Below, piece by piece: positions 9,734 through 64,000 of a DNA stretch of 64,000 nt. The notes under the pieces were generated by a model. The model was not told the origin of the DNA. It saw nothing but the letters and a program-made list of their open reading frames with translations, and ran no database searches. The translations under genes and the position numbers were made by a program. The DNA comes from Mycobacteriales bacterium (lineage in GTDB: Bacteria; Actinomycetota; Actinomycetes; Mycobacteriales; Nakamurellaceae): the NCBI GenBank assembly GCA_038229825.1, contig JBBROB010000013.1:84065-148064 (forward strand), given 5' to 3'. Each line of letters begins with the position of its first letter. Position 1 is the stretch's first letter.

Positions 9734-10207
9734 GTGGCTGTCAAGATCAAGCTCGCTCGCTTCGGCAAGATTCGCGAGCCGTTCTACCGTGTTGTCGTCT
9801 CCGATGCCCGCACCCGCCGTGGCGGTCGTGCCATCGAGGCGATCGGCAAGTACCACCCGAAGCTCGAACCGAGCCTCATCGAAATCGACTCCGAGCGGGC
9901 GCTGTACTGGCTGGGCGTCGGCGCGCAGCCGACCGAGTCCGTGCTGTCCCTGCTCAAGGTGACCGGTGACTGGCAGAAGTTCAAGGGCCTGCCCGGAACC
10001 GAGGGCACGCTCAAGCCGCAGCCCGAGAAGATCGACAAGCGGACGCGCTACGAGGCGGCCATGGCTGCCATCGGAACCGACGATGCGCCCGCCGCCACCA
10101 CGCCGAAGAAGCGCGCAGCCAAGGCTCCCGAGGCTGCTGATGTCGCCGCCGACGCGCCGGCTGCCACCGAGGCCCCGGCCCCGGCCGCGGCCGCCGACGC
10201 CAAGTGA
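9734..10207 (+). CDS. rpsP: 30S ribosomal protein S16, with an actinobacterial Ala/Pro-rich C-terminal extension
   Basis: GTG start preceded by AAGGAG. N-terminus '[41 protein letters not shown]'. Confidence 0.95.
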
Positions 10208-10443
10208 GTGTGCTCACCGACGCCCTGGAACATCTGGTCCGGGGCATTGTCGAACACGACGAGGATGTCCGGGTCGATCTGACCACCGGGCGTCGTGGCC
10301 GCACGCTGCAGATCCGGGTTCACCCCGATGATCTCGGCAAGGTCATCGGTCGCGGCGGCCGTACGGCCACCGCGCTGCGGACCGTGATGTCGGCTGTCGG
10401 TGGGCGTGGTATCCGGGTCGACGTCGTCGACACCGATCGCTGA
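10204..10443 (+). CDS. KH-domain RNA-binding protein (UPF0109 family)
   Basis: 79 aa with '[20 protein letters not shown]' (GxxG KH loop). GTGA overlap with rpsP. Conserved rpsP-KH-rimM-trmD order. Confidence 0.85.
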
Positions 10444-48818: not shown

Positions 48819-49769
48819 GTGATCGACCACCAGAATGCAGTCGATTGCCCGCCTGGCCTGGCGGTCGTCACTCTCTGTCCCAGCCCTACCGCGGCCGAGA
48901 TCGCCGAACTTGTCGAACACCATCTGACGCTGGTCGGCGTCTTGGTCTCCGAACGACTACGTAATGTGCCCGCTCACATCCGCCGCGACGACCTGATGTC
49001 CGCTGGCATGATGGCCCTGGTGCTCAGCGCGGGCGCCTTTGACCCCCGGCGCGGATTTCCCTTCCGGAGCTTCGCCACCTATCGGATTCGAGGCGCCCTG
49101 ATTGACGAACTCCGGGCGATGGATTGGGCTTCCCGATCGGTGCGGAGCCGGGCTCGTGAGGTGGAAACGATCCGCGCCCAGCTGACCGCGGCGCTGGACC
49201 GATTGCCCAGCAGCGACGACATAGCCGACGCCCTGGGGATCAGCACCCGCGAGCTCGACGCGCTGTACGCAGACCTTGCCAGGGGCACCGTCCTCAGCCT
49301 GCAGGGTTTCGCCACCGATGCTCTCCCCGACACCCCGGCCAACCACGCCGAGTGTCCGGAATCGCTGCTCCTGCACCGCGAGCAGATGGGCTACCTGCAC
49401 GACGCCATTGCGGCACTGCCCGAACGCCTGCGTTTCGTGGTGGTCGCCTACTACTTCGGGCATCGCCAGATGAGCGATATCGCCTTGGAGATGTGCGTCA
49501 CCCAGTCGAGGGTGTCCCAGATGTGCGCCGAAGCCACCACGCTCCTCCGCGACGGCATGAACTCCCAACTCGACCCCGAGGCATTGCGGCCGCTGGTTCA
49601 GACCGGACGCGCGGCGTCTGCCAGAAGTGCCTACTATCAAGCGCTTGCCAAGCGCAACACGGTTGCCGGGCGACTTGACATGTCCACCCCCCAGGGTGAA
49701 ATGCGGCGCGGAATCTACGCCGAGCAGGTCGAACACCTCGCACCGATGGAGCGTGCCCGGATCGCCTGA
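48819..49769 (+). CDS. Sigma-70-family sigma factor, group 3 (FliA/WhiG-like)
   Basis: Region 2 'DDLMSAGMMALVLSAGAFDPRRGFPFRSFATYRIRGALIDELR', region 3 'IADALGISTRELDAL', and region 4 'LPERLRFVVVAYYFGHRQMSDIALEMCVTQSRVSQMCAEA'. The start is uncertain: GTG 48819 was chosen, and the ORF is open from 48603. Confidence 0.7.
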   Translation: MIDHQNAVDCPPGLAVVTLCPSPTAAEIAELVEHHLTLVGVLVSERLRNVPAHIRRDDLMSAGMMALVLSAGAFDPRRGFPFRSFATYRIRGALIDELRAMDWASRSVRSRAREVETIRAQLTAALDRLPSSDDIADALGISTRELDALYADLARGTVLSLQGFATDALPDTPANHAECPESLLLHREQMGYLHDAIAALPERLRFVVVAYYFGHRQMSDIALEMCVTQSRVSQMCAEATTLLRDGMNSQLDPEALRPLVQTGRAASARSAYYQALAKRNTVAGRLDMSTPQGEMRRGIYAEQVEHLAPMERARIA

Positions 49770-49888
49770 CCGCTCGCCTCGTCGGTATGACACCGCTGGC
49801 GCTGGCGTTCAAAAGTTCGGCCGGCCCTGGTGGAGGGCGCCGGAAGCGCGCCCGGGGTGTGGCGACGCCCTCCAGCAACGTCGGTCGG

Positions 49889-50830
49889 CTACCTGGTGAC
49901 CGTGACGATCGAGCATCCCAGCGCTCTGGGGACCGTGTACGGCCCATCCGGCAGTCCGACCGTGCAGATGGTGTGCCGACCGGCGGTCGCCGCGACGGCG
50001 AGGGCGAATCCGTGGTTGCCCGCGATGTGAAACACCCGGAACACGTCTGCTCTGGGGTTGCGGGCCGGCGTCGTGACGACGCGTCGCCCGTCCACCAACA
50101 CGTTGACCGTATTGCTGGCCGTCGGACGATGCGGATCAAGTGACCAGCCCACCACGCTCGCACGCAGTTTTCCACCCGACGCTGCGTCGAGGTGGCCGAT
50201 GGCGGCGACGGTTCTTGGGGTGACCACCGCCTGACCGGGCTGGACGGCGTCAGTGAACTCGATGGTGTTCCACGTTCCGTGGGACCCGCTCACGGTGCCC
50301 GTTCCCAAATAGTGGAACTTCCGGTTGAGGATGTTCGCGCGGTGCCCGGGGGAGCGCATGTATGCCTGGAAGAGACCGGCGGCGGAAGCCGCGGCCGTCG
50401 AGACGGTGCCGACGTTCTCGCCCCAGGTGCTGCGGTTGGCGGCGCCGAAGATGGTCAGGCTGTTCCAGGCCCCGGCGTTGTGCATCAGCTGATATCCGGT
50501 GGCGCCGCTGTTCATGCGACGGGACCAGGCCAGCGCGAGCTGGGTCAGGCCTCTGGCCTGGGTCAGCGGCGGGCTTCCGGCTTGTTGCCTGGCCTGATTG
50601 ATCAACCGGGTCATGGCTTGGTCGAAGGAAACCACCTGCGGCGCTGCCGCTGCCGCGATGGCCGCGGTCCTGGCGGGAGTCGCAGAAACGGCCGGCGCGC
50701 TGACCAGGGACGCACTGGCCGCCGTGGCGAGGGCAAGCGCCAAGGCAGCGACCCGGCTATGTCTGGCACCGCCAAGCTTGTCGGGCCGTTTGCTGGTCGG
50801 ATCCACTACGGGCTGAGTTGATGTGGGCAA
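49889..50830 (-). CDS. Secreted CAP/SCP/PR1-like domain protein with an extra C-terminal domain
   Basis: TTG start preceded by GGAGAA. Signal peptide 'AALALALATAASASLVSAPAVSA'. CAP motifs 'LALAWSRRMN', 'MHNAG' and 'YMRSPGHRANILNRKFHYLGTG'. Confidence 0.7.
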   Translation of the reverse strand: MPTSTQPVVDPTSKRPDKLGGARHSRVAALALALATAASASLVSAPAVSATPARTAAIAAAAAPQVVSFDQAMTRLINQARQQAGSPPLTQARGLTQLALAWSRRMNSGATGYQLMHNAGAWNSLTIFGAANRSTWGENVGTVSTAAASAAGLFQAYMRSPGHRANILNRKFHYLGTGTVSGSHGTWNTIEFTDAVQPGQAVVTPRTVAAIGHLDAASGGKLRASVVGWSLDPHRPTASNTVNVLVDGRRVVTTPARNPRADVFRVFHIAGNHGFALAVAATAGRHTICTVGLPDGPYTVPRALGCSIVTVTR

Positions 50831-51455
50831 GGTTTCTCCAAATGGTCGGACGGCGTACCGGAAGCGCGCAGCCCACCTTTGGGCACCAGGACGATGGTCA
50901 ATCCACTATCTCGAAGTGGTAACGATAAATCAACATGGGCGACCACACACGTTTCGAAGAATTCCAAACTGGAATTCGCCCAAAAGGGGCACGCAAACGA
51001 CCTGACCCGTGGTGAGCTGTGCAGATTCCAACGAAAGTTGGCTGAAGAACCCGGTTATACCGTATTGAATTCGACGGTTATGACGAATCTCACCATTGGC
51101 CGAGCAGTGGATCTTTTGGGTCTCACCCGGCTTCCCTGCTGCATTCGCTGCGCACGCGGGGCCGGCGTCCGACACACGGATGATGGATCGCTACCCGACC
51201 CCTTGCCTCAGGGCGGCGACTTCGTTCCCAAGATCGAATTTGAAATGGGGGACCCGAAGATATGAAGCGGCGAGACACCCGCCGCTGGTGCCCGCCCCGT
51301 AGATGCGTCAACGAGACCCTCTGTCCGGCTTGGCCTCTTCGGACCGGCAGGAAAGAGCGTCCAACACCGCCTCGCCCGTCAACGATCCATGCACGGCTGC
51401 CCCGAGATCGTCCTTGCCACGCCGGTCGGCCGCGGCGCCCGCCGCGACCCAGCCT

Positions 51456-52373
51456 TCAATGCCCTGAACCGGCCGGTGTGCGCGCCGAGTAGGCCCCCGC
51501 GTCGAGGTCCTGGATCAGTGTCGGACCGGTCGGTGTCCAACCCAGCAGTTCCCGTGTGCCGGTGCTGGTTGCCGACAGGTCCATGCCGAAGAACGTTCCG
51601 ATCCAGCCGAAGTGGTCCGGCACATCGTCTGTGTCGATCGAGGCGACTGGCAGGCCGAACGCGCGGCCGATCGCTTCGGCGATGTCGCGGCTCGGAATGC
51701 CGGTTTCGGCGACGGCGTGCAGTCGCGCGCCCGCCGGTGCCTTCTCGAGCCCCAGCGCGACGAGGCGCGCGGCATCGAAGCGGTGCACCGCGGCCCACCG
51801 ATTGGTTCCGGCTCCGGGATAGCCGGAGACGCCCTTCTGCCGGGCGATCGCGGCGATCGCGGCGATGAACCCGTGGTCACCTCCGCCGTGGACGGTCGGG
51901 GCGAAGCGCAGGCTCACGGTGTGCACGCCGCGGTCGACGAACTCGAGCGCGAGATTCTCGCTACCTCCTCGTGGCGACTCCGGGCCGTGGAACGGGGAGG
52001 CGTCCTCCTCGGTTGCCGGCCTGCCGTTGGTCAGGGCGGCGACGCCAGAGGCCAGCAGGAACGGACGGTCACTACCGACCAGGGTGTCGCCGATGGTCTG
52101 GACGGCGGCTCGCTCGGCCGCGTTCGAGGCGGCCGGATTGGACCAGTCGTGCTTGTTGGCCAGATGGATGACGGCGTCGGCGCCCGCGGCGCCCGCGCGG
52201 ATGCTCCCGAGATCGTCGAGGTCGCCCCGCAGGACGCCGGCACTCTTTGCTGCCAGCGCCGCGGCGGAGGCGTCGGACCTGGCGAGCCCGGTGACCTGGT
52301 GCCCGGCGGCGAGCAGCTCATCCACAGTGGCGAAGCCGATCCAGCCAGAGGCTCCGGTGACGAAAACGTTCAC
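51456..52373 (-). CDS. NAD(P)-binding SDR / NmrA-like oxidoreductase
   Basis: 'MNVFVTGASGWIGFATVDELLAAGHQVTGLARS' Rossmann fold. Divergent from a TetR gene. Confidence 0.8.
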   Translation of the reverse strand: MNVFVTGASGWIGFATVDELLAAGHQVTGLARSDASAAALAAKSAGVLRGDLDDLGSIRAGAAGADAVIHLANKHDWSNPAASNAAERAAVQTIGDTLVGSDRPFLLASGVAALTNGRPATEEDASPFHGPESPRGGSENLALEFVDRGVHTVSLRFAPTVHGGGDHGFIAAIAAIARQKGVSGYPGAGTNRWAAVHRFDAARLVALGLEKAPAGARLHAVAETGIPSRDIAEAIGRAFGLPVASIDTDDVPDHFGWIGTFFGMDLSATSTGTRELLGWTPTGPTLIQDLDAGAYSARTPAGSGH

Positions 52374-52492
52374 AGTGTTCTCCTTCGGCCCCGCCCACCG
52401 GACGGAGCGATCGATGCGATCTGGCGACTGATGTCAGCCACAGACATCAACCTACACCCTATGGCAGTCGCTGTCATCACTACACTTGACGG

Positions 52493-53083
52493 ATGATGCG
52501 TTGGGAGCCGGGTGCGCGAGAACGGCTGCAGGCCGCAGCACTCGAGTTGTTTGCCACTCGCGGCTTCGAACAGACGACAGCCACCGACGTAGCACAGGCC
52601 GTCGGCCTTACCGAGCGGACCTTCTTCCGCCACTTCAGGGACAAGCGCGAGGTGCTGTTCTATGGGCAGGATCTTTTCGTCGAGGCCTTCCTGAACGGTG
52701 TTGACGCCGCGCCACCGGACGCATCCCCGCTCGAGGTCATCGCCTCCGCCGTGCACAGCGCTGCGTCCTTCTTCCCGGACGAGCGCCGACCGTACTCCCG
52801 CATGCGACAGTCGGTGATCGAGAAGAACCCTGCACTGCAGGAACGCGAACAGCACAAATCCGCCGGTCTTGCCACCACCGCGGCCGAAGCCCTGCGCAGC
52901 CGGGGCATCACTGAACCGGCAGCCACGCTGGCCGCCGAGTCGGGCGCCACCGTCTTCGGAATCGCTTTCGCACAATGGATCCGGGAAGGGGAGGAGCGTT
53001 CGCTGGCCACCATCGCGGCGGACGTACTCCGCGAACTGCAGCACCTGACCACCCCGGCCGCGGCGTCCAACAAGCTCCGGTGA
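52493..53083 (+). CDS. TetR-family transcriptional regulator
   Basis: 'RERLQAAALELFATRGFEQTTATDVAQAVGLTERTFFRHFRDK'. Confidence 0.85.
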   Translation: MMRWEPGARERLQAAALELFATRGFEQTTATDVAQAVGLTERTFFRHFRDKREVLFYGQDLFVEAFLNGVDAAPPDASPLEVIASAVHSAASFFPDERRPYSRMRQSVIEKNPALQEREQHKSAGLATTAAEALRSRGITEPAATLAAESGATVFGIAFAQWIREGEERSLATIAADVLRELQHLTTPAAASNKLR

Positions 53084-53134: not shown

Positions 53135-53359
53135 TCACATCGAAGGCGGCCCGCCTCCGGGTTGATTCGTCACTTCGATGAAGATGACGCTCGCGCATCG
53201 GCCATTGATCAGCAGAACGCTGCCGCTGTCGTCGTCGTCGATGACTACGGTGCGGCCGAGGTCCACCGCCTCCTTCAACTGAGATGTCAGGACACCGAGA
53301 TCCGTTCCGAACGGGACGGGGTAGGAAGCCCCGTCAACTGAGATGCTGATATGTTTCAT
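53135..53359 (-). CDS. Small hypothetical protein (74 aa) translationally coupled to the LAL regulator
   Basis: ATGA overlap (53356-53359) with the regulator stop. 'MKHISISVDGASYPVPFGTDLGVLTSQLKEAV...VVIDDDDSGSVLLINGR'. No family recognised. Confidence 0.45.
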   Translation of the reverse strand: MKHISISVDGASYPVPFGTDLGVLTSQLKEAVDLGRTVVIDDDDSGSVLLINGRCASVIFIEVTNQPGGGPPSM

Positions 53360-56295
53360 GACTGATCTGCCCTTCGCCTGGCGGAATTCCGGTTATCGAT
53401 CTGATGAGCTGACGCATCCAGTTTATGGGCGAGGGCGGCTGCCTGGCCCCGATTATCAACACCCATCTTCGCCAGGATGTTGCTGACATGCACGCTCGCG
53501 GTCTTTTCGGTGATGAAGAGTGTTCTGGCGATCTGCCGGTTGCTCGTCCCTGATTTGAGTAGCCCGAGGACCTCACGTTCTCGGGTGGTCAAACCCATCC
53601 TCTGGGCCGCCGACATCGGCGTCGGCGCGGTGGCCGAAATGGCGACACCGGCCATCTCGGCGAGCTGCTCGATTCGCGCCAGCAGGGGTCGCGCCCCAAG
53701 TTCGTCGGCCTGCCGAGCGGCATCGCGAATAGTGTCATCCAGTCCTGCTTCGCGGCCTGAGAGTTGCGCTTCGGCGAGCCGAAAAAGTGCATAGGCACCG
53801 AGGTAGGGGCGATTCGCAGCTTGGGTCGACGTCGCAGCGGATCGCCATGCCTGTCCATCTGTCCCATCCGATGAACGGGCCAATTCGGCGTCGCAGAGCG
53901 CAATCATCGGTTGGCAGGAGCGCTTGTTCCGGAACGGTTCGACGCAGTCGACAATTTGCAACGCGATGCGGCGCAACTGTTCCCCGTCGATCCCTTCCAG
54001 CAGGCGTAGTTCCTCGCCGGAATCGATGAGTGCACGCAGCGCCAGAGCCGAGAGTCGCGAGAAGGCCTGGCCCCCATCGGTGGAAGGGAATCCGTCCAGT
54101 GCGGCAATAGCCACTTCGAAGGCCTGCCGTGGCTGGCCGTCCCAGAACAGGGCTTCGACCCGACAGATGGTGAAAAGGCCGGTGGCCCAGTACTCGTTCA
54201 ACGACGCCACCCTTGGCGCGTGATCATCCAGGAAGGTCGCCCCACGAACGGCGCCGGTCGAGATGTCAAGATCGGCCCTGATGAGGTCGAGGTAGAGCTG
54301 ATGTCCCCCGGGTGCGACCCTGTCGGCGCCGTCCAGCAGCAACTCCCTCGCTTCCGTCCACCGGCCCAGGGTCAGCAAGGTGGCCGCTGCGTTGCACTTG
54401 AGGATGGCACCGGCGCTGTGCGCCAAGCCATATCGCCGGGTGAACGACAGCCCCTCCATCGCGACGTCGACCGATTCCTGCAGTCGGTCGGCGAGATCCA
54501 GGACGTAGGCCAGGTTGTTGTACGCGCGGCACACATCCTCCAGTGCGCCGGCCTCTCTGGCCTTCGAGAGCGATTCCCTCAGGAACGTGATGCCGCGGTC
54601 TACTTCACCGGTGCTCGCCAGGCTGGTGCCCAGAGTGTTCAACGCGTAACTCAACTCGGGTACCGATCCGACCGTTCTGGCCATGGCGACCGCCCTGCCG
54701 GCGACCGCGATCGAGGTGTCGTGATCACCGCGCAGCATCGAGATCGCTGCCAGCGCAGACAAGGCTCTCGCATGTTCCTTCGACGGGCCGCAGTCGGCGA
54801 GCACCTCACAGCTGCGTCGGGCGGCCAGCAGGGAGGACGGCCCTGACCCGCGCTCCCAGTGGTATCTGGCGAGCCTTTCCCACGCGCGGCTTTCGATCAG
54901 TCCGGCCCCGGTGACCGGAAGGTGGTTCAATGCGGCAGAACTCAGCTCGATGGCCCGATCGAGCTGATCGATCCAGCGCAGCGACTCCGCGAACTCCAAA
55001 TGCAATTCGGCCAGGGCGGCGCCCGAGGCTGACTCCGGACTGCTCACATTCGACAGTTCGACCGCCTTCTCGTACAGTGCGGCCGCATCGGCATAGGCCA
55101 GCCGTCCGGCGGCGGCCCGCGCGGCCACCACGATGGGGCCAAACGCCCGCGCCGGTTGTCCGGCCAACAGCCAATGCCGCGCGACAGCGCCGGCGCAGTC
55201 GCTGGTCAATTCCCGGCCGGGGATCAGCAACGCCTCGGCCAGTGCGCGATGAAGCTCCTGACGTTCGGCCGGGAGCAGTTCGTCGTCGATCACCTCAGCG
55301 AAAAGTGCGTGGCGGAACCTCAGCGAGGTCTGCGAGCGATCTGCAACGAGCAGGCCCGTACGGACGGCAAGGCGGGTAGCCTCGCCGAGTTCGACCGGCG
55401 CGGCCTGACACGCTCGCTCCAGCACGGGGACCGGCAACTCCTGACCGCCGGCAGCGACCAATTGCAGCATTCTTCGGGCCACCACCGGTAGCGGCGCAAC
55501 GCGGGCAGCAACATGATCTCGGAGCGTCTCCGGCAGGGTTCCCTCTGTGCTGCTGAGCACTTCAGCCAGGAACGGATTTCCGCCGGACCGAGCGACAACT
55601 TCCGCCCGCCGTCGGAGGCTGACCTCCGGCATCAGCTGCGCGACCAGATCGGTCGTGTCTTTCTCGTCGAGGGCGGCCAGGTCCAGGCGAAGCACGTTCG
55701 ACTGGAGCCCGGCCATGGCCAGCACGGGCCGCAGCGGATGAGCGAAATGCAATTCGTCGGATCGAAAGGTCGCGATGATCTGCAGGCGCTGACCGTAGGC
55801 GTTTCGGACCAGGAACGCCAGTGCGTCCAGGGTCGCCATGTCCGACCAGTGCAGGTCCTCGAGAGCGAGCACAACAGGGCGGTCTTCGGCCAGTTCGGTG
55901 AGCAGGTTCAGCAACAGCTCGAACAGCCTGGTCTGGGCCGTAGCGGCGTTGTCGTCGGTGGAACCCAGCAGCGGCAGCAAGGGTGCGAGGGCGCTGCGCC
56001 GGGCCGGGTCGAGCCAGTTCACAATGTCCGGATCGTGGTGGATGGTGCGGAGGGCCCCCGCTATCGGACCGTAGGGCAGCGCCCCGTGGTTCAGCGGCTG
56101 GCAACTTCCCAGCAGAACGCGCACGCCACACCGAGTTGCCTGTCCCAGGTGTTCGACGAGGATTCGCGTCTTACCGACCCCGGCCTCACCCGAGACGAAC
56201 GCCGTCTGGGTGACACCGTCGGTTGCGGCCGCGAGAGACTCCAACAGGCTCGCGAGTTGGGCGTCCCGCCCTACCACTCGCGCTCGAGGCGACAT
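53356..56295 (-). CDS. LAL-type regulator (N-terminal AAA/P-loop ATPase, TPR-like middle, C-terminal LuxR HTH)
   Basis: 979 aa. Walker A 'VSGEAGVGKTRIL' and Walker B-like 'VVLALEDLHWSD'. C-terminal 'LTTREREVLGLLKSGTSNRQIARTLFITEKTASVHVSNILAKMG'. Divergent from lanL. Confidence 0.85.
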   Translation of the reverse strand: MSPRARVVGRDAQLASLLESLAAATDGVTQTAFVSGEAGVGKTRILVEHLGQATRCGVRVLLGSCQPLNHGALPYGPIAGALRTIHHDPDIVNWLDPARRSALAPLLPLLGSTDDNAATAQTRLFELLLNLLTELAEDRPVVLALEDLHWSDMATLDALAFLVRNAYGQRLQIIATFRSDELHFAHPLRPVLAMAGLQSNVLRLDLAALDEKDTTDLVAQLMPEVSLRRRAEVVARSGGNPFLAEVLSSTEGTLPETLRDHVAARVAPLPVVARRMLQLVAAGGQELPVPVLERACQAAPVELGEATRLAVRTGLLVADRSQTSLRFRHALFAEVIDDELLPAERQELHRALAEALLIPGRELTSDCAGAVARHWLLAGQPARAFGPIVVAARAAAGRLAYADAAALYEKAVELSNVSSPESASGAALAELHLEFAESLRWIDQLDRAIELSSAALNHLPVTGAGLIESRAWERLARYHWERGSGPSSLLAARRSCEVLADCGPSKEHARALSALAAISMLRGDHDTSIAVAGRAVAMARTVGSVPELSYALNTLGTSLASTGEVDRGITFLRESLSKAREAGALEDVCRAYNNLAYVLDLADRLQESVDVAMEGLSFTRRYGLAHSAGAILKCNAAATLLTLGRWTEARELLLDGADRVAPGGHQLYLDLIRADLDISTGAVRGATFLDDHAPRVASLNEYWATGLFTICRVEALFWDGQPRQAFEVAIAALDGFPSTDGGQAFSRLSALALRALIDSGEELRLLEGIDGEQLRRIALQIVDCVEPFRNKRSCQPMIALCDAELARSSDGTDGQAWRSAATSTQAANRPYLGAYALFRLAEAQLSGREAGLDDTIRDAARQADELGARPLLARIEQLAEMAGVAISATAPTPMSAAQRMGLTTREREVLGLLKSGTSNRQIARTLFITEKTASVHVSNILAKMGVDNRGQAAALAHKLDASAHQIDNRNSARRRADQS

Positions 56296-56436
56296 GGCTC
56301 GAGTATGGCCCAGAGCAGCCCACCCGCGGGCGGTTTTACAAGGGCTCCATCACTAAGTCCGGAAGCCCGCGGGCTAGGTAGTTCTGCCGATGTCAACGGC
56401 GCGCGTCCCGTGCGAATCTCGTTTCACGAACCCCCT

Positions 56437-56448
56437 GGACCATGGTCC
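56437..56448. promoter_or_regulatory. Perfect 12-bp palindrome GGACCATGGTCC, 44 bp upstream of lanL (candidate operator)
   Basis: Self-complementary sequence in the divergent regulator/lanL intergenic region. Two copies of the palindromic octamer CCCGCGGG also occur at 56323-56330 and 56366-56373. Confidence 0.25.
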
Positions 56449-56491
56449 CAGGCAGCACCCAGGTTCGTTCTGACAGACGAGGAGAAATCAG

Positions 56492-59215
56492 ATGACCCAG
56501 CAGGCGGTTCTCGGACGGCGGGCGGCTAGTTCGACCGACAACTCTCTGGAGCAAGCAAGTCTGGGTGAGGTCCTGGCCGGTTTGATCGCCGACGCGCCGA
56601 ACCCTGCCCTGTGGTCCTTCCGCCTCGACGGTGTGTGGGCGTATGCGCATACGGCAAAGCCGCTCCCGATTCAGGGATGGAAATTGCATGTCTCAGCGAC
56701 CGTCGGTTCCGCCGAGAGCGTGTTGAGGGCCTGCGCCGGTGTGCTGCTGGCGGCCGGATGCAACTTCAAGGTGGCCAGCACGTCCGAGCACGTACAGGGC
56801 CTGACAGATTCGCATTGCCCGGCGGAGAGTGCCGGAAAGGTATTGACCGCCTATCCGGGTGACGATGATTCGGCCGTCACCCTGGCCCAGCGGCTCGACG
56901 TGGCAACGAGAGGGTTTGACGGGCCGCGGATTCTCTCCGATCGGCCGTTCGTCCCCGGAAGTCTTGTCCACTACCGCTTCGGTGCATTCACCGGAATACC
57001 GCACGTCTCCCATGATGGCGACGTCACCGCCGCCCTGATGGCTCCGGACGGCACCCCCGTGGCCGACAGCCGCGAGGTCGGCCGTCCGGCACCGGAATGG
57101 GCCAGCCGACCGTTCGTCGTTGCTCCGGCCGGCGATGAAAAGGCGGCCGGACCGCGCCCAGTGATGCTGGCCGATCGTTATGTGGTGCAGGAGGCAATCC
57201 GTCATGCCTACCGCGGCGGCGTCTTTCGTGCCGTCGACCAGAAGTCGGGCCTGACGGTGGTGGTCAAGCAGGCCAGGGCGAACGTCGGCGCAGGTCGCGA
57301 CGGCCTGGATGTGCGCGATCGCCTCCGACACGAGGCCGCGGTGCTCCAGGCGCTGGCCGGACGCGGTTGGGTACCGGAATTGGTGGACACCTTCGAGCAG
57401 GACGGTGACGTGTTCGTGATCGAACAATTCATCCCCGGTCTCAACCTCCGCCAGTGGGTGAATGCCGGTGTGCGCGACGGAATTGTCCTGCGGCCGGTTG
57501 GGGAGGCCCTTCAGGTGCTGGCCAGGGCCGCGACGGTACTGGTCGACCTTCACGCGGCGGGCGTGGTGGTCCGCGACTTCAGCCCCAATAACGTCGTCGT
57601 CGGCGATAGCGGTCAGGTGGTACTGGTCGACCTGGAACTTGCCGATGTACCTGGGATCCCGGTGGGCATCGCACCAGGGGGCACCAGAGCCTACGGGTCG
57701 CCGGAGCAATTCGCAGGCAGCTCTCCACATCGCAGCACCGACGCCTACGCACTCGGCGCGGTCATCGCCTTCACCCTGACGGGTGAGGATCCGCTGCTCT
57801 GGCTCGACACCGTTCCCGACATGCGGAGCTGGCTGGCTCATGGGGTCCGGCAAGCCAGCTGCCCGCCCGACGTCGCGGACCTGGTCGTCGCCTTGTGCTC
57901 GGTGGATCCTGCCGCCCGGCCGACGGCTGCGGCGGCGGCCGATATGTTGCGCACCGCAAAGGCTTCTGCCCCTTCGTTGACGGTCCCGCTGGTCGCCCGG
58001 GCGGCCCTGCAGGACATCCGGCCGATGTCCGAGGCCGAGTTGGACGCAGCCATCGCTGCGCTTCTGGACCGACTGCTTGCCGACGTACACCCGGGGCGAC
58101 AGCGAGTCGCTCGGTCGTCCGGTTTCGGTGAGTCAACGTTGGCGACCAACGTCCAGCATGGTGCGGCCGGGATTCTCGGTGCCATGGTGTCAACGTTCGA
58201 CGCGCTGCACGACGATCGACTGCTCGAGAAGATCCATGACGTTGCGAGGTGGCTGGAACTCGCCGTCGAACGCCATCCCGCGACGGGTCCGGTGGGGTTG
58301 TATTTCGGGTATTCAGGTCCACTCTGGGCCCTGGCCGACGCCGGCGTTGCGCTCGGCGACCCAGCCATGGTCACCAGCGCCTGCGAGCGGGCATTGGCAC
58401 TGCCGACCAGTTGGCCGTCGCCGGATGTCACCCACGGAGTCGCGGGGCTCGGACTGACACTGGTCCATCTGTGGCAGCTCACTGGCGATCGGCGACTGCG
58501 GGACAGGGTGCTCCAGGCTGGGGGGCATCTGCTTGACTGCGCCGAACTGGACGTCGGTGCCGGTCCCGCCGGACCGAGCATCTCCTGGCGGACGCCGCGC
58601 GGGGTTGCCTCGACATTCGCCGGCGGCCGCTTCAATGGATTCGCGCACGGCACGGCGGGTATCGGATTGTTCCTCGAGCACGCTGCCCTGGTGACAAAGG
58701 CAATCGAGTTCGCCGACGCAGCAACACTTGCAGCACAGACACTCGCAAGGGCTGCGGTGCGGCGCGACGGCATGGCGACCTGGGGCTCAAGCCCAGAAAG
58801 GCCGGATCCCGGCCTGACGTACTGGTGCAACGGCTCGTCCGGGGTGGCCACCTTCCTGTCCCGCCATGCCGCGGCCACCGGCGATCAAGACCAACAGCTG
58901 CTCGGAGAAGCGGCACTGTCCCTGGTCAGAAACAAGTGGAAATCCGGGATTTCCTACTGCCATGGGCTTTCCGGCGATGCCGACCTGCTCCTGGATCTGG
59001 CTGAGACCACCTCGGAGCGATACCGGGACTGGGCCGGTGACCTGTTGCGCTGCATGTGGGCCCGCCGGGTGACGGACACGCTCGGACCGGCCCTGTCCGA
59101 CGAGCCCGGCCAAGTCGTGCCGGATTTCAATGTCGGCTACGGTGGCCCGCTCACGGTGCTGCTGCGTTTACGGCACGGTGGCGCCCGGTCCTGGCTCCCG
59201 GCGCTGCGGCCATGA
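56492..59215 (+). CDS. lanL: Class IV lanthionine synthetase (LanL-type): N-terminal phosphoSer/Thr lyase, central Ser/Thr kinase, C-terminal Zn-type LanC cyclase
   Basis: GAGGAG lies upstream of the ATG. Lyase-domain hallmark 'IQGWKLHVSA'. Kinase motifs 'VVKQARANVG', 'VVRDFSPNNVVV' and 'LVDLELA'. LanC motifs 'HGVAGLG', 'HGTAGIG', 'YWCNGSSG' (Cys codon 58826-58828) and 'SYCHGLSG' (Cys-His codons 58958-58963). Confidence 0.85.
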   Translation: MTQQAVLGRRAASSTDNSLEQASLGEVLAGLIADAPNPALWSFRLDGVWAYAHTAKPLPIQGWKLHVSATVGSAESVLRACAGVLLAAGCNFKVASTSEHVQGLTDSHCPAESAGKVLTAYPGDDDSAVTLAQRLDVATRGFDGPRILSDRPFVPGSLVHYRFGAFTGIPHVSHDGDVTAALMAPDGTPVADSREVGRPAPEWASRPFVVAPAGDEKAAGPRPVMLADRYVVQEAIRHAYRGGVFRAVDQKSGLTVVVKQARANVGAGRDGLDVRDRLRHEAAVLQALAGRGWVPELVDTFEQDGDVFVIEQFIPGLNLRQWVNAGVRDGIVLRPVGEALQVLARAATVLVDLHAAGVVVRDFSPNNVVVGDSGQVVLVDLELADVPGIPVGIAPGGTRAYGSPEQFAGSSPHRSTDAYALGAVIAFTLTGEDPLLWLDTVPDMRSWLAHGVRQASCPPDVADLVVALCSVDPAARPTAAAAADMLRTAKASAPSLTVPLVARAALQDIRPMSEAELDAAIAALLDRLLADVHPGRQRVARSSGFGESTLATNVQHGAAGILGAMVSTFDALHDDRLLEKIHDVARWLELAVERHPATGPVGLYFGYSGPLWALADAGVALGDPAMVTSACERALALPTSWPSPDVTHGVAGLGLTLVHLWQLTGDRRLRDRVLQAGGHLLDCAELDVGAGPAGPSISWRTPRGVASTFAGGRFNGFAHGTAGIGLFLEHAALVTKAIEFADAATLAAQTLARAAVRRDGMATWGSSPERPDPGLTYWCNGSSGVATFLSRHAAATGDQDQQLLGEAALSLVRNKWKSGISYCHGLSGDADLLLDLAETTSERYRDWAGDLLRCMWARRVTDTLGPALSDEPGQVVPDFNVGYGGPLTVLLRLRHGGARSWLPALRP

Positions 59216-61041
59216 CCACGACGATGATCGAGGCGGCCGGGCCGGCCACCGATTGCGCGGCGGCAGCCCCGGCCAGGGTGTCCTGGCGATTCTCGCCCGG
59301 CGGTGCGGTCGCCGCCTGCACGGTGGTGCGCCCCGGCCGGCCACCGGAGCTGGAGATCCGGACCGGGACGAGTCGGCGGAGATTGACCATTCAGGATCTT
59401 TCGGTCTACAGCCAGCTCCTGCCGACCGACGATGGTGCGGTGTTCATCGCTCACCAGATCGGCGGGTTGAGCCACATCCTGCTGGTGCGCGCGGACGGAG
59501 CGGTGTCGACGACGACCCATCGCAGCGCAGGTGGGTTGGCGCTCGTGGCCCGACCTGGAGGTACCGGGGTGGTCGCTGTCGAATCCACCCTCGCCGGCGC
59601 GAGCCGACTGCTGGAGTACCGCAACAGCCGGTTCTGCGAATTGGTGTCGTTCGACGGAATTGCCGTCGGCGCGGTCTGGCTGGACGATGTGGGCCGCCGA
59701 ATGGCGGTCAACATCACCGGCCCCGGGCAGCACTGCTCAGCGATCGACATCGACCTGACAACCGGCGACATCACCCCGATGCTGTCGATCTCGCCGACGA
59801 GCGACGACAGGATCAGCGGCTACCTGCCGCGTGCCAACCTGATCGTGTTGTCCACCAACGCGACCGGTGAAATACGGCTTGGCTACGGTCATCCCGGCGT
59901 CGACCGGGTGGCCTTCCCGGACAGCCTGTCGGCCTGCGGTCCGGTGACCTACCTTGCCGGCTCGTCCGACGGCGCGGTGCTGGCCGTGGCAGTGGACCAG
60001 GGAACGTCCTCCGTTGTTCGCATCGTCGATACCGGCTCTGGCCTGGGGACAGATCTGCCGCTGCCTCCGCTGGTGGTCATTGGCTCAGGACAAATCCGCG
60101 GAACCCGGTTGACGTTGCCGGTCAGCACATCGGATCGGCCGGGCACCTTGTTGCACGTCGACATCCGCTCCGGAGTGCACAGTTTCGAGGATCCGGCGGA
60201 GCCGGGGGCGGTCCGGCCGGCCGTTCGTTGGCTACCCGGCGCGGACGGACCGGTGGAGAGTCTGATTTACGGAGACGTCGAGGCCGCGGCCGTCGCCGTG
60301 GTCGCCCTGCACGGCGGCCCGGTGCAGGCGTGGCGGGCAACCTTCGATCCGCTGCTTGCCGAACTGGTCGCCAACGGGATTGCCGTGGTCGCACCCAATA
60401 TTCGGGGTTCCAGCGGCTACGGACGTGACCATGTCATGGCCATCCGTAACCGGTGGGGCGGACCGGACTGCGACGATGTGCTCGCGATCGGCAGGTGGCT
60501 CATCGCGCGCAGGGGCGGTGCGGCGATGCGCCCGATCGTGCTCGGAACTTCCTACGGCGCGTTCCTGGGAATGCTTGCGGCGCAGCGCGCGCCGGGCGAC
60601 TGGTCGGGATGTGTGGCCCTGTCGACCTTCATCAGTGGCGCGCGGGTCGTCGACGCCGGCGGGGCGGTCGCCGAGTTGGTCCGTCGACTCGGCGGCGTGA
60701 CGTCCCCGGATCTGCGAGATCGACTGGATCGGATATCGGTCCCGGTGCTGCTGGTGCACGGCACCGCCGACCACGTTGTCCCGGTGAGCGAATCAGGCCT
60801 GCTGGCCGCCGGCCTGCGTGCTCATGGTTGCCCGGTGCACCACCTGGAGATCAGCGGGGGCGGTCATGACCTCATCAGCGATCCACAGCGCAGAGTTTGC
60901 ATCGACGCGATCCTCGACTTCTGCAGGGAGGTGAAGAAATTTGACTTCGGACGCGGTCCTGATGAAGGAGAAGGAACCCAAGCGGTGCAATGGCCCGCCC
61001 CGGCAGCCACCAGACCGGCACGCACAAACAACGAGAAATGA
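59212..61041 (+). CDS. S9 (prolyl oligopeptidase family) serine peptidase, likely the leader peptidase
   Basis: ATG 59212 overlaps the lanL stop (ATGA). N-terminal propeller-like region. C-terminal alpha/beta hydrolase with nucleophile 'LGTSYGAFLG', 'LVHGTADHVVP' and 'SGGGHD'. Confidence 0.8.
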   Translation: MTTTMIEAAGPATDCAAAAPARVSWRFSPGGAVAACTVVRPGRPPELEIRTGTSRRRLTIQDLSVYSQLLPTDDGAVFIAHQIGGLSHILLVRADGAVSTTTHRSAGGLALVARPGGTGVVAVESTLAGASRLLEYRNSRFCELVSFDGIAVGAVWLDDVGRRMAVNITGPGQHCSAIDIDLTTGDITPMLSISPTSDDRISGYLPRANLIVLSTNATGEIRLGYGHPGVDRVAFPDSLSACGPVTYLAGSSDGAVLAVAVDQGTSSVVRIVDTGSGLGTDLPLPPLVVIGSGQIRGTRLTLPVSTSDRPGTLLHVDIRSGVHSFEDPAEPGAVRPAVRWLPGADGPVESLIYGDVEAAAVAVVALHGGPVQAWRATFDPLLAELVANGIAVVAPNIRGSSGYGRDHVMAIRNRWGGPDCDDVLAIGRWLIARRGGAAMRPIVLGTSYGAFLGMLAAQRAPGDWSGCVALSTFISGARVVDAGGAVAELVRRLGGVTSPDLRDRLDRISVPVLLVHGTADHVVPVSESGLLAAGLRAHGCPVHHLEISGGGHDLISDPQRRVCIDAILDFCREVKKFDFGRGPDEGEGTQAVQWPAPAATRPARTNNEK

Positions 61042-61056
61042 AAGGAGGATTGAGAA

Positions 61057-61200
61057 ATGAGCATTGATATCGCGGAACTGGACTTGCTGCCAGCGGTGGC
61101 TGCGGCTCCGACCACCGATGATCTGGCCGAATTGGGTCTGATGTGGTGCTGGATCACGTGCTGGCACACGTGCTGGATCACCGATCACATCCAGATCTGA
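61057..61200 (+). CDS. lanA1: Lanthipeptide precursor 1 (47 aa): MSIDIAELDLLPAVAAAPTTDDLAELGLMWCWITCWHTCWITDHIQI
   Basis: Translated by hand. AAAGGAGGA (61041-61049) sits 7 nt upstream of the ATG. It lies directly downstream of the synthetase and protease genes. The leader is shared with the second peptide, and the core has 3 Cys and 3 Thr. It is below the size cut-off of the supplied ORF track. Confidence 0.7.
   Translation: MSIDIAELDLLPAVAAAPTTDDLAELGLMWCWITCWHTCWITDHIQI
61147..61182 (+). repeat. 12-nt in-frame tandem repeat x3 (TGCTGG-ATC/CAC-ACG/ACC) encoding (Cys-Trp-Ile/His-Thr)x3
   Basis: Read directly: tgctggatcacg / tgctggcacacg / tgctggatcacc. Confidence 0.9.
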
Positions 61201-61210
61201 TGGCCGCCGT

Positions 61211-61238
61211 GGCAGGGGTGGTGTGCCCGTCTCCTGCC
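61211..61238 (+). terminator. Stem-loop between the two precursor genes (8-bp stem GGCAGGGG / CTCCTGCC including one G-U, 12-nt loop); possible attenuator or processing site
   Basis: The inverted repeat 61211-61218 / 61231-61238 is visible in the sequence, starting 11 nt after the lanA1 stop. There is no U-tract. Confidence 0.3.
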
Positions 61239-61302
61239 CTGTCACGCGCTATATCCGGATCCAAGACGGCTCTCCCCACACCTCGAAAGGGGGTGAATCA
61301 AA

Positions 61303-61446
61303 ATGAGCATCGACATCATGGAACTTGACCTGCTGCCGGAGATCGACCCGATCTCCACTGCCGATCTCGACGAAATGGGTCTACAGGTCTGCCGGCCCAC
61401 TTGTCTGTTCAATTCCTGCTTTTTCACCAAGGACTTCTATTTCTGA
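61303..61446 (+). CDS. lanA2: Lanthipeptide precursor 2 (47 aa): MSIDIMELDLLPEIDPISTADLDEMGLQVCRPTCLFNSCFFTKDFYF
   Basis: Translated by hand. GAAAGGGGG lies about 10 nt upstream of the ATG. The leader 'MSIDI-ELDLLP...DL-E-GL' is conserved with precursor 1, and both are 47 aa. The core has 3 Cys and 3 Ser/Thr. Confidence 0.7.
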   Translation: MSIDIMELDLLPEIDPISTADLDEMGLQVCRPTCLFNSCFFTKDFYF

Positions 61447-61556
61447 CAATCCTGGTGTGCCCTTCGGTCTGAGGCGGTGCCCTGGGTGCGGCGTGGATTC
61501 CCTGCCGCGCCCGGGGCGGCCGACCTCAATTCGACTCCCCGCAAATCTGATGAGGT

Positions 61557-63242
61557 GTGAAGATGAAGGACGCCATGACCAACCCCTGGCGTATTGCTCC
61601 GATCTGGACTTCGGTGGCAGTGTCGGCGGCAGTCGTCGGCACGGCCACGAGTCTGGCCATCCCCGCCCTGGTCGGTCGGACAATCACCGCATTTGCGCAA
61701 GGTCGAGAATCGGCCCAGCTCATCTGGCTGTTGATCGCCGCAGTGGCCGCGACGGTGACGATGGGCGTGCTCGCGGCTGTGGCCGGCGGGTCCGGGAGTG
61801 CGCTCATCACCGCCGGCATCCGCCGCGCACTGAGCCGCTCGATCGTCCGCACCGAAGGTCCCGGCGTCGACGGGGTTCGATTCGGCACATCGGATCTGAT
61901 CACGCGCCTTCTGCTCGACAGCAGCGCATTGTCGAGGGCTGTGCCGATAGCCGTCAGCCTGATTCTCTCCTGCGCCAGCCTGTTGGTCGGCATGGTCATG
62001 CTGCTGCTCATCGACTGGTGGCTACTGGTCGGAGTAGTGGCGGGACTGCTGCTGTTGACAGCGATGTTGCGCCGCTACATCGACGACACCGCCGGTCCGA
62101 TCTCGACCTACCGCGAGAGCCAGGCCGAGATCGGGCAGCGACTTCTCGACGCCCAAAGGGGTTCGGCCAGCATCCGTGCGTACGGGACATGGATGCGCGA
62201 ACTCGCTCGCATCGTCCGGCCGCTGCCCGTCCTGCGGGCGGTCGGATCGCGACTCTGGGCCGCACAAGGGCGAATGGCCTGGCGTTCGTCGATCTTCGTT
62301 CCCTCGATTCAACTCTCGATGGTCGGGCTGGGGTGCGTGTCGATGGCCGCAGGTCGGATCAGCGTCGGCCAACTGGTCACCGCGCTGGCCTACAGCACGG
62401 TGATCCTGGGGGCGTTGGATGGCGTGGAGGCGGCCGCCGGTCTCAATCTGGTCAAGGCCGGACGCAGTCGGATCGTCGAAGTCGTCGGATCCTGGACACC
62501 CGGGCGAGTCACCGGCTCGCCGCCGTCGACCGATGAGCCGTTGGAAGTGGTGCTGGACTCGGTGACGGTGCTGGGTGCCGACGGCGGGCCGATTCTCGAC
62601 GACATCAGCTTGACCATTCCAGCGGGTGCACTGGTCGCTGTCACCGGGCCGGCCGGCTCCGGCCGTTCGACCTTCGCCGGCATGGTGGCCGGCACGATCG
62701 TCCCGGCTTCAGGAAACGTGCTGATCGGCGGCGTCCCGCTGGTGCAGATACCGGCGGCAGCTCGGGCCGGACTGGTCGTCCTCGGCTCGTCCCGACCGGC
62801 GCTGATCGGTGAGACCGTCGCCGGTCTGATCGGACTGGGCCTAGGCCCGCTGACGGCCGACGTCGTGGCACAGAACGCCAGGGACGCGCACATCGCCGAT
62901 GTCATCGATGCCCTGCCGGGCGGTTACCTCGCCCGGCTGGACGAACTGCAACTTTCCGGTGGTGAGTTGCAGCGGCTGGGCATCGCCCAGGCAATGGCCA
63001 GGAACAGCAAGGTGATGGTGCTGGACGACGCCACCTCGAACCTCGACGCGGCCACCGAGCGAGAGGTGGTCGGCGCGCTCCGTGCGGCCGGCCGCGGGTG
63101 CACCTGCATCCTGGTGACCAATCGTCCGGCGGTGGCGCGACTGGCGGATGTGGTCATCCGGCTGGAAGCGGGTCATGTCGTGTCCTCAACAACACTGTCT
63201 TCCTCAACAGCGCCGTCCTCAACAATGGCGAGCATGAGATGA
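61557..63242 (+). CDS. ABC exporter half-transporter (TMD-NBD fusion)
   Basis: N-terminal 6-TM domain. Walker A 'GPAGSGRST', signature 'LSGGELQRLGIA' and Walker B 'VMVLDDATSNLD'. The start is GTG 61557 or ATG 61563. Confidence 0.85.
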   Translation: MKMKDAMTNPWRIAPIWTSVAVSAAVVGTATSLAIPALVGRTITAFAQGRESAQLIWLLIAAVAATVTMGVLAAVAGGSGSALITAGIRRALSRSIVRTEGPGVDGVRFGTSDLITRLLLDSSALSRAVPIAVSLILSCASLLVGMVMLLLIDWWLLVGVVAGLLLLTAMLRRYIDDTAGPISTYRESQAEIGQRLLDAQRGSASIRAYGTWMRELARIVRPLPVLRAVGSRLWAAQGRMAWRSSIFVPSIQLSMVGLGCVSMAAGRISVGQLVTALAYSTVILGALDGVEAAAGLNLVKAGRSRIVEVVGSWTPGRVTGSPPSTDEPLEVVLDSVTVLGADGGPILDDISLTIPAGALVAVTGPAGSGRSTFAGMVAGTIVPASGNVLIGGVPLVQIPAAARAGLVVLGSSRPALIGETVAGLIGLGLGPLTADVVAQNARDAHIADVIDALPGGYLARLDELQLSGGELQRLGIAQAMARNSKVMVLDDATSNLDAATEREVVGALRAAGRGCTCILVTNRPAVARLADVVIRLEAGHVVSSTTLSSSTAPSSTMASMR

Positions 63243-64000
63243 GCCGGGCAACGGGAGCTGGAAAGCTGCCGCGCGCACTGCCGGCGACCGGGTCGGACCT
63301 GCTACGGGATTGCCTGCCCGGCCGGGGCGCCATCCTGCGTCTGTTCGCCTGGGTCGCCGCTGAGTCCGTGCCGGCGCTGCTGTCCGGGCTGTGCCTGGCC
63401 CGGGCGATCGATGCGCTGCAGGACCGCAGACCGGCCGCAGTGGTCGGTGCGCTGGCTGTGATGGCCGGCGCGATCGGTCTCGGCGCCATCGCCACCAGGG
63501 CACTCTATTTCTCTCTGGCGATCGTCGTCGACGACTTTCGCGACACTCTGATGGCTGCTGTCGTGCGTGGTTCGCTGCTTCGGATGACCGACGACGGACG
63601 TCCAGGGCCGAACACGCTGACCCAATTGATCGACCAGGTCGATCAGGTGCGCAACCTGCTGTCGGCTGTGCTGCGCGGTATCCGCTCGACGTTGGCCCCA
63701 CCCGTGGCGGTCTGCCTCGGGCTGTTCGCACTGGACCCCCGACTGGGTTGGGCCGTACTGATCCCGCTCGGTGCAGCCCTGGCCCTGTATGGAGCGCTGC
63801 TGCGCCGCGTCCTTTCCCGGGAGCGAGCAGCGGCGATAGCTGGGGAACGCCTTGGGGTCTGCGCCGGTTCGATCGTCCAGGCGATCGGTGACATTCGTGG
63901 GCTCTCAGCCCAGCAGTGGGCCCAGGACAGGATCGACGATGCCGTCGGATCGGTGGCGGCAGCCGACGCGGCAGCCGCCCGCACGGTCGCAAAGCGGCAC
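63239..64000 (+). CDS. Second ABC exporter half-transporter (TMD part only; 3' end beyond the window)
   Basis: ATG 63239 overlaps the previous stop (ATGA). The frame stays open to the window edge (254 codons). Hand translation 'MSRATGAGKLPRAL...LRLFAWVAAESVPALLSGLCLARAID...' is a hydrophobic type-I exporter TMD. It is not in the ORF track because no stop is reached. Confidence 0.7.
   Translation, partial: MSRATGAGKLPRALPATGSDLLRDCLPGRGAILRLFAWVAAESVPALLSGLCLARAIDALQDRRPAAVVGALAVMAGAIGLGAIATRALYFSLAIVVDDFRDTLMAAVVRGSLLRMTDDGRPGPNTLTQLIDQVDQVRNLLSAVLRGIRSTLAPPVAVCLGLFALDPRLGWAVLIPLGAALALYGALLRRVLSRERAAAIAGERLGVCAGSIVQAIGDIRGLSAQQWAQDRIDDAVGSVAAADAAAARTVAKRH

Follow-up and report, generated by a model that had tools for sequence, protein, structure and literature searches.

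The 64-kb window analysed here, meaning the whole 64,000-nucleotide stretch of contig JBBROB010000013.1 from a Mycobacteriales bacterium, contains at positions 53135-64000 a predicted class IV lanthipeptide gene cluster. Eight open reading frames (ORFs) are present in this region, none of which has internal stop codons. Positions given below refer to the window, the loci of relatives are labelled L003 to L017, and the peptides of the precursor family carry labels of the form P0xxx. When the ORFs were re-derived, the gene set, the coordinates, and the ATGA overlaps at lanL/peptidase and at the two transporter genes were as the original prediction had stated them.

On the minus strand, a 74-aa ORF (53135..53359) has an ATGA overlap with the end of the gene for a 979 aa LAL-type regulator (53356..56295). 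The regulator gene is divergent from lanL, with a 196 bp intergenic promoter region (56296..56491) between them. On the plus strand follow the synthetase gene lanL (56492..59215, 907 aa) and a gene for a 609 aa S9-family serine peptidase (59212..61041), the ATG of which overlaps the lanL stop codon as ATGA. Two precursor genes of 47 aa each come next, A1 (61057..61200), which is alpha-like, and A2 (61303..61446), which is beta-like, both preceded by GGAGG-like ribosome-binding sites. A GC-rich hairpin (61466..61536) lies between the second precursor gene and the genes for two ABC half-transporters, ABC1 (61563..63242, with an alternative GTG start at 61557) and ABC2 (63239..64000), which is ATGA-coupled to ABC1 and runs for 254 codons to the window end. 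The GC content is 62-70%, which together with the taxonomy of the relatives indicates an uncultured actinobacterium. For every ORF, including the three small ones, GC is 0.73-0.79 at third codon positions (GC3) against 0.33-0.55 at second positions (GC2).

The synthetase has the three domains of a LanL enzyme. These are a lyase domain (RamC_N, PF25816, 6e-48, residues 33-218) of the OspF-like phospho-Ser/Thr lyase type, a kinase domain (Pkinase, PF00069, 2.9e-16, residues 242-482) with the motifs VVVK (256-259), VRD (360-362), and DLE (380-382), and a LANC_like cyclase domain. The cyclase keeps D645, H719, C779, C823, and H824, comprising the Cys-Cys-His zinc ligands and an Asp/His acid-base pair. 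These residues are the counterparts of D642, H710, C769, C814, and H815 of SgbL, which are essential by mutagenesis (PMC9292228). Zinc ligands are the feature dividing class IV from class III, the LanKC enzymes being without them (PMC7268733). The match to the LanL equivalog model NF038150 (cutoff 650 bits) is end to end (model positions 1-851) and scores 835 bits, whereas the LanKC model of class III, NF038151, gives 393 bits, under its cutoff of 575. Certain databases name LanL homologues LanKC, for example P0031 and P0071, but a class III reading was dropped on these scores. Judged by domains, residues, and equivalog model, the window synthetase is thus of class IV (LanL), as had been predicted. 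In a search of 5.8 billion proteins the closest LanL was 55% identical and metagenomic; the nearest homologues are 47-55% identical and every one comes from a metagenome or a metagenome-assembled genome (MAG). A single TTA codon is present in lanL and none in the other cluster genes, which is relevant only under bldA-type host regulation.

Precursor A1 consists of the leader MSIDIAELDLLPAVAAAPTTDDLAELGLMW and the core CWIT-CWHT-CWIT-DHIQI, and A2 of the leader MSIDIMELDLLPEIDPISTADLDEMGLQV and the core CRPT-CLFNS-CFFT-KDFYF. Both have orthologues in L017, a contig of an independent metagenome on which the pair stands in the same alpha-like to beta-like order. The A1 orthologue is P0150, with an identical TCWHTCWITDHIQI end, and the A2 orthologue is identical at 41 of the 47 residues. 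Compared with these orthologues, the ratio of nonsynonymous to synonymous substitution rates (dN/dS) is 0.23 for A1 and 0.08 for A2, so both small ORFs are under purifying selection; for the comparable part of the adjacent S9 gene it is 0.19. The two 47-aa precursor genes are therefore real, given their ribosome-binding sites, the selection on them, and the orthologous pair in a second metagenome. A class III (LanKC) system, or a remnant without function, is a very improbable reading of the cluster. Besides the model scores and the zinc ligands of LanL, the absence of internal stops from the ORFs and the purifying selection on the precursors and on the L017-comparable part of the S9 gene speak against it.

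A profile made from the two window peptides alone matched only themselves, the word-index search limiting its reach. The family was therefore built up by adding peptides from the loci of LanL homologues, which gave 26 matches, and HMMER, run without an index over 1.84 billion representative proteins, then gave 52, with A1 retrieved at 78.6 bits among them. The genome scan used the profile of a 13-sequence subset, which cannot match the window's own divergent leader. The family has about 50 representative clusters, almost only from metagenomes and actinobacterial MAGs. Its leaders all follow the pattern M-x-(I/V)-D-(I/V)-x-x-L-(D/Q)-x-L-P-E-…-G-L-x-x or, more loosely, (L/V)(D/Q)xLPE…G-L-x-x. 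An LLP is conserved in every leader, with a second Pro 4-6 residues later in most, and Gly(-4) is found in 60 and Leu(-3) in 69 of 73 leaders.

The family core is made of 2-5 tandem Cys-x2-3-Thr/Ser units, and both window peptides fit the leader and core patterns. Each Cys has a Ser/Thr ahead of the next Cys in 73 of 74 family peptides, and at 201 of 206 junctions the Ser/Thr immediately adjoins the next Cys. Counted from its own Cys, the Ser/Thr lies at +3 in 169 cases and at +4 in 31. Four-unit cores occur in 57 of 73 peptides, three-unit cores in 11, two-unit cores in 3, and five-unit cores in 2. The numbers of Cys and Thr/Ser vary together, the window peptides having 3 of each, most relatives 4 Cys, and the L009 peptides 2. 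Within the units, W, F, I, L, and V make up 54% of positions combined, and a polar or charged C-terminal tail comes after the units. The residue before the first Cys (-1) is R or K in 39 and P in 14 of 73 family peptides; in the window precursors it is W and V.

Peptides P0171, P0174, P0176, P0183, and P0192, of 62-98 aa, have four or five Cys units, including a conserved G-x-L/G-S-C-x-H-T, and long polar C-terminal extensions; they appear to form a distinct sub-branch of the precursor family. The JGI/IMG name of P0164, 'modification target Cys-rich repeat protein', would make it a radical SAM target. This was ruled out, as TIGR04114 scores 16.5 bits, below its cutoff of 20, and a radical SAM gene is present in none of the S9-type operons. 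The label is probably a mis-annotation due to the Cxxx periodicity. Two strings resembling TCWxTCWxTCW were also rejected, one at 3903-4166 of L010, where a QQVT/QQVI repeat of a 506-aa gene is read in antisense, and one at 9719-10369 of L011 that is an out-of-frame repeat. These frame artefacts are a caution against mining the family by motif alone.

The leader is of the class IV type and resembles those of VenA and of the class IV peptides called 'ALQxL'. Weak matches to the ALQxL model NF038157 are found for 23 of 26 close family members, and to the VenA family model NF038147 for 21 of 26, the latter being below threshold and confined to the leader (18.4 bits, for example). VenA has …ALPETDP… in its leader, which agrees with the published VenA residue numbering. 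Some wider-family peptides with (CxxT)4 cores are above the NF038157 cutoff of 19 bits, namely P0156 (22.9 bits), P0175 (27.2 bits), and P0191 (20.3 bits). Neither A1 nor A2 gives a match to NF038147 (cutoff 35 bits), and where NF038157 has ALQxLP the window pair has ELDLLP. The pair can be placed, by its leader, as a divergent 'LDLLP' branch beyond the present NF038157 model. That model covers 17 residues of leader, of the type (A)L(Q/D)xLP(E) shared with the window family; the core, the S9 peptidase, and the precursor pairing are outside it. No characterised member of the NF038157 family was found, and full-text searches for the peptide motifs, for 'ALQxL', and for CxxT with lanthipeptide found no experimental paper on the family.

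The original prediction had described the cores as unlike those of known class IV peptides. This holds to the extent that neither precursor attains the VenA-family or ALQxL-family cutoff and no characterised match was found. It does not hold for annotators, who already know the family, since NF038157 takes in wider-family members. As a divergent branch of a precursor family already labelled by NCBIfam, the cluster is not a new kind of system.

The S9 peptidase matches Peptidase_S9 (PF00326) at 8e-21 and 74.9 bits, with a cutoff of 22.6. Its catalytic triad, S447/D520/H552, and an HGGP motif are invariant in 6 orthologues, and the triad aligns to the triad region of the Aeropyrum acylaminoacyl peptidase. 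No obvious signal peptide was seen at the N-terminus on reading the translation. In every related locus where this part is assembled, the gene lies between those for LanL and the precursors, and in L003, L004, L009, and L014 its stop codon overlaps the start of the first precursor gene.

In the conserved gene order, LanL is followed by the S9 peptidase, then by one to three precursors (paired in the closest relatives), a GC-rich hairpin, and the two ABC genes. This operon recurs in at least 8 other loci, and the order holds down to 43% LanL identity. The full series from LanL to the second ABC gene is present in L003/L008 (a Nocardioidaceae MAG), L004, L005/L006 (an Actinomycetota MAG), and L014, which has a single precursor and the LanL that is 43% identical. 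The matching part of the order is found on the short contigs L007 (a Mycobacteriales MAG), L012 (three precursors), and L017 (the orthologous precursor pair). In L009 (an Actinomycetota MAG, LanL 48% identical) the match covers LanL, S9, and two precursors. With this recurrence and the purifying selection on the small ORFs, the cluster is not a chance occurrence; on the comparison of gene order, it is best described as an intact class IV operon that is conserved beyond this genome.

After LanL and S9, L009 has at 9992-10313 a divergent two-Cys precursor pair with Trp-rich tails (…VTCQITHICVLSWWEFEW and …IPCPSITCQRWWSKWF), and L012 has at 1375-2018 three different precursors, of 47, 54, and 56 aa, in a row ahead of the ABC pair.

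In cultured Kribbella and Actinophytocola, LanLs of about 40% identity stand beside radical SAM genes and lack an S9 gene, which makes the S9 gene a hallmark of the subclade. In L015 (Kribbella albertanoniae) and L016 (Actinophytocola xanthii), LanL is directly downstream of radical SAM genes, and L016 has three of these together with a pair of ABC transporters. The arrangement appears to be another type of class IV cluster, possibly a hybrid one.

Downstream of the precursors, the folding energy of the whole stretch 61444-61550 is -57.3 kcal/mol (z = -4.68), a value that 0 of 200 shuffled sequences reached. An equivalent hairpin of different sequence is in the same position in L003, L004, L005, and L007 (z of about -3.6 each). 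No T-tailed terminator was found after the precursors by a consensus scan, and a fold after A1 was no better than shuffled sequence (z +0.56). A hairpin after the precursor genes is a usual device of clusters for peptides that are made on ribosomes and modified after translation (RiPPs), holding the precursor mRNA above that of the downstream genes. The hairpin here is likely to be a partial terminator or an mRNA stabiliser that fixes the ratio of precursor to transporter.

ABC1 has the ABC_membrane and ABC_tran domains, and the ABC proteins are without a peptidase domain; the S9 enzyme is therefore the sole protease of the operon. In relatives, the conserved part of the operon ends with the ABC2 orthologue, a protein of 556-599 aa. 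The right boundary had been called unknown. It is true that the cluster runs past 64000, but its end can be estimated, as the conserved set in relatives stops at ABC2; by synteny, the cluster would end with ABC2 roughly 1 kb beyond the window. The genes upstream of lanL and downstream of ABC2 vary from locus to locus.

Taken together, it is thought with a probability of roughly 0.8 that this is a functional class IV lanthipeptide operon that makes two related but distinct peptides. In the pathway proposed, LanL would bind the shared N-terminal leader MSIDI-x-ELDLLP…G-L-x-x, its kinase would phosphorylate the three Thr/Ser in each core, and elimination of the phosphate by its lyase would leave dehydrobutyrine (Dhb) or dehydroalanine (Dha). 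Within each Cys-x2-3-Thr/Ser unit, the zinc-dependent cyclase would then join the Cys thiol to the dehydro residue that lies 3-4 positions downstream, and three directly abutting small (methyl)lanthionine rings, with the Cys N-terminal in each, would be the outcome. The cytoplasmic S9 serine peptidase would take off the whole or part of the leader, and the two ABC half-transporters, as a heterodimer, would export the hydrophobic Trp/Phe-rich products. The strong hairpin past the second precursor gene would let precursor mRNA exceed transporter mRNA, and in this genome the operon is probably turned on by the divergent LAL regulator.

Ring formation within the units is suggested by several features of the cores. 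The first Cys has no conserved Ser/Thr upstream of it, so at least the first ring would run from Cys toward the C-terminus, and the last Thr has no Cys following. Units are gained or lost whole, and the three-unit members have lost one Cys and one Thr jointly. The rings of venezuelin, which are made by a LanL, likewise have the Cys N-terminal (Cys34-Dhb39 and Cys45-Dha49; PMC2843593). For leaderless three-ring products starting at the first Cys, the calculated monoisotopic M is 2103.927 for A1 (CWITCWHTCWITDHIQI) and 2183.942 for A2 (CRPTCLFNSCFFTKDFYF). From the core sequences, two hydrophobic peptides are the likely products, with three thioether rings abutting in each and the Cys N-terminal to its partner; such peptides would be rigid amphiphiles.

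Several points weigh against the pathway or parts of it. Within the window ABC2 is incomplete, and the LAL regulator is not beside LanL in L003, L004, L005, L009, or L014. When searched with NF038157, A2 scores only 13 bits and A1 does not match. We know of no characterised precedent for an i to i+3 ring with an N-terminal Cys. The strict adjacency of Thr and Cys could come from another topology, for example overlapping Dhb(i)-Cys(i+5) rings. The others concern the peptidase. Its nearest solved structures are the acylaminoacyl peptidases (S9C) of Aeropyrum pernix, the prolyl oligopeptidases being more distant, and a Pfam scan gave no match to the model of the prolyl oligopeptidase N-terminal domain; 'S9 peptidase' is thus a safe name and 'prolyl oligopeptidase' is not. 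In addition, no single cleavage rule holds for the family, most relatives having R, K, or P at -1 and the window peptides W and V.

These last points have led to consideration of a different role for the enzyme. It might trim the C-terminal tails (DHIQI, KDFYF, EVAD, I(Y/L)H) or have an unrelated role, and housekeeping M1-type AplP-like proteases might cut the leader instead. The acylaminoacyl peptidases that are its best structural relatives have exo- and oligopeptidase activity, the P1 residue ahead of the core is not uniform, and AplP-like enzymes encoded outside the cluster cut class IV leaders elsewhere (PMC8341899; PMC10885120). This is nevertheless considered unlikely, because the S9 gene is strictly kept at its place between lanL and the precursor genes and is translationally coupled there, and because FlaP, an S9 enzyme of class III, has been proven to act as a leader peptidase encoded in its own cluster (PMC10885120). 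The conservation of Gly(-4)-Leu(-3) in the leaders also suggests a defined processing site. The S9 enzyme is therefore still presumed, from its position and family, to be the leader peptidase.

It is tentatively suggested, although on balance it is rather doubtful, that the alpha and beta peptides of the cluster act together in synergy, as in the class II two-peptide lantibiotics, and would be the first two-component class IV lanthipeptide; this extends the two-peptide operon reading and does not contradict it. In the closest subfamily, four translated loci (L003, L004, L005, and L007) have an alpha-type peptide, C.(V/I)TC(W/F)ITCWDTC.NT.I.H, followed by a beta-type peptide, C.WTC..TC.G(R/Q)TC..TEVAD. 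One peptide of each type is on the same contig in three short-contig pairs (P0123/P0140, P0136/P0138, and P0143/P0144), where co-occurrence and not order is seen. The window pair and the L017 pair are both alpha-like then beta-like, and the separate conservation of the two types argues against plain redundancy. However, the number of precursors is 1 to 3 across the wider family, with one-precursor (L014) and three-precursor (L012) loci, only one synthetase is present, and several precursors are frequent in RiPP clusters without synergy. The most complete form of the proposal combines a ring architecture so far unseen in lanthipeptides, in which three to five thioether rings of 4-5 residues abut without a break and each is closed from an N-terminal Cys to a C-terminal Dhb or Dha, with a first two-component class IV pair and a dedicated S9 leader peptidase. 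That all of this should hold at once is improbable.

The function of the products may not be antibiotic. There is a real possibility, somewhat short of even, that they are surface-active morphogens or signalling peptides like SapB, SapT, and other class III and IV peptides without antimicrobial activity. Venezuelin analogues are without antimicrobial activity (PMC2843593), the hydrophobic share of the unit-internal positions together with the polar or charged tail makes an amphiphile, and the conserved operon has no dedicated immunity gene. On the other side, the ABC exporter pair could double as immunity, and hydrophobic, rigid, polycyclic peptides are also typical of membrane or lipid II binders. 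Sequence alone does not separate an antibiotic from a morphogen role.

It was stated in the original prediction that few class IV lanthipeptides have been characterised, and a 2022 study does count four in total. Of the characterised products, the venezuelin-type peptides have overlapping rings, SflA has two rings that are separate, and two others have one ring or two (PMC9576775). The window cluster, as read from its genes, differs from these in core architecture, in having an in-cluster protease, and in its separately conserved precursor pair. The founding member, venezuelin (VenL/VenA/VenT/VenH) of Streptomyces venezuelae, shares with the window a three-domain LanL with zinc ligands and two ABC transporter genes, and its core has Cys-N-terminal rings and Ser/Thr-Cys adjacency (PMC2843593). 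The VenA leader is also related, as family members match NF038147 weakly through the leader. However, the venezuelin cluster has one precursor, no protease, and no regulator (PMC2843593), where the window has two precursors, an S9 peptidase, and a LAL regulator, and its core has four overlapping rings instead of tandem Cys-x-x-Thr units. The window LanL is only about 40% identical to the Streptomyces LanLs among the matches listed.

SflA, the product of SflL, has separate, non-overlapping methyllanthionine rings, as predicted for the window peptides (PMC8341899); it has two rings only, whereas the window cores have three units. Its leader is cut after PDLLK by AplP-like M1 proteases encoded elsewhere (PMC10885120), and an S9 gene is not reported in the Sfl cluster. 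Flavipeptin, a class III system (FlaKC/FlaP), is similar to the window in having an S9-family peptidase gene inside a kinase-type cluster, but is without zinc ligands and has labionin rings, whereas the window is of class IV and has an S9 enzyme nearer to the acylaminoacyl peptidases. To our knowledge, FlaP is the only characterised S9 enzyme of a kinase-type lanthipeptide cluster. It cuts the modified precursor in the leader after Pro(-12), with other peptidases trimming the rest (PMC8341899; PMC10885120). The class II two-peptide lantibiotics, such as haloduracin, lacticin 3147, and roseocin, have adjacent, distinct, and separately conserved precursors with similar leaders, as in the window. 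Those systems use LanM, whereas the window uses LanL and only genetic pairing is seen. Roseocin is described as two peptides with one synthetase (PMC10027976).

If the two-component and leader-peptidase proposals hold, neither such a pairing nor a protease within the cluster would have an earlier example in class IV. The repeat-based core grammar gives a concrete, easily tested structural prediction, and an in-cluster protease could ease the leader removal that hampers heterologous production of class III and IV peptides. The family is almost restricted to uncultured Actinomycetota and is therefore one to be reached by gene synthesis. The window provides full-length lanL, S9, and both precursor genes, which is enough for reconstitution in E. 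coli or in vitro, making the cluster a good, well-defined discovery target for synthesis and expression.

The regulator has AAA_16 (2e-24), TPR_12, and GerE (3.5e-18) domains and the P-loop GEAGVGKT. By this architecture, with an N-terminal AAA/P-loop, a central TPR region, and a C-terminal LuxR helix-turn-helix in about 900-1000 aa, it is classed as a LAL-type regulator, and it is a candidate cluster-situated activator. The coupled 74-aa ORF has a GC3 of 0.73 against a GC2 of 0.44 and is called as a gene in an independent Logan assembly of the locus. It has no Pfam or NCBIfam match and no counterpart in the related loci examined; a 69-aa ORF upstream of LanL in L004 was considered as a counterpart and is unrelated. 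The flanking genes differ in every locus, so the regulator and the 74-aa ORF are specific to this genome. The inclusion of both in the cluster is thus correct as regards the ORFs and their ATGA overlap, but as they are absent from all related loci examined they are at most a local addition. In the lanL/LAL intergenic region, a perfect 9-nt inverted repeat (CCCGCGGGC/GCCCGCGGG) is at 56323-56331 and 56365-56373, with 33 nt between its arms. This could be a putative operator or a stem in the 5' untranslated region. No sigma-70 consensus promoter was found in a scan of this divergent region.

To the left of the cluster, gene calls on the Logan copy of the locus identify four genes in 48819-53083. 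These encode a sigma-70 factor (48819-49769, plus strand), a CAP-domain protein (49889-50830, minus strand), an NmrA/epimerase-like protein (51456-52373, minus strand), and a TetR regulator (52493-53083, plus strand), none of which is kept beside LanL in the related loci. Within 7-8 kb of the orthologous clusters there are a phage-type integrase (968-2107 of L003) and an IS110 transposase (18037-18685 of L004), which hints that the operon is mobile.

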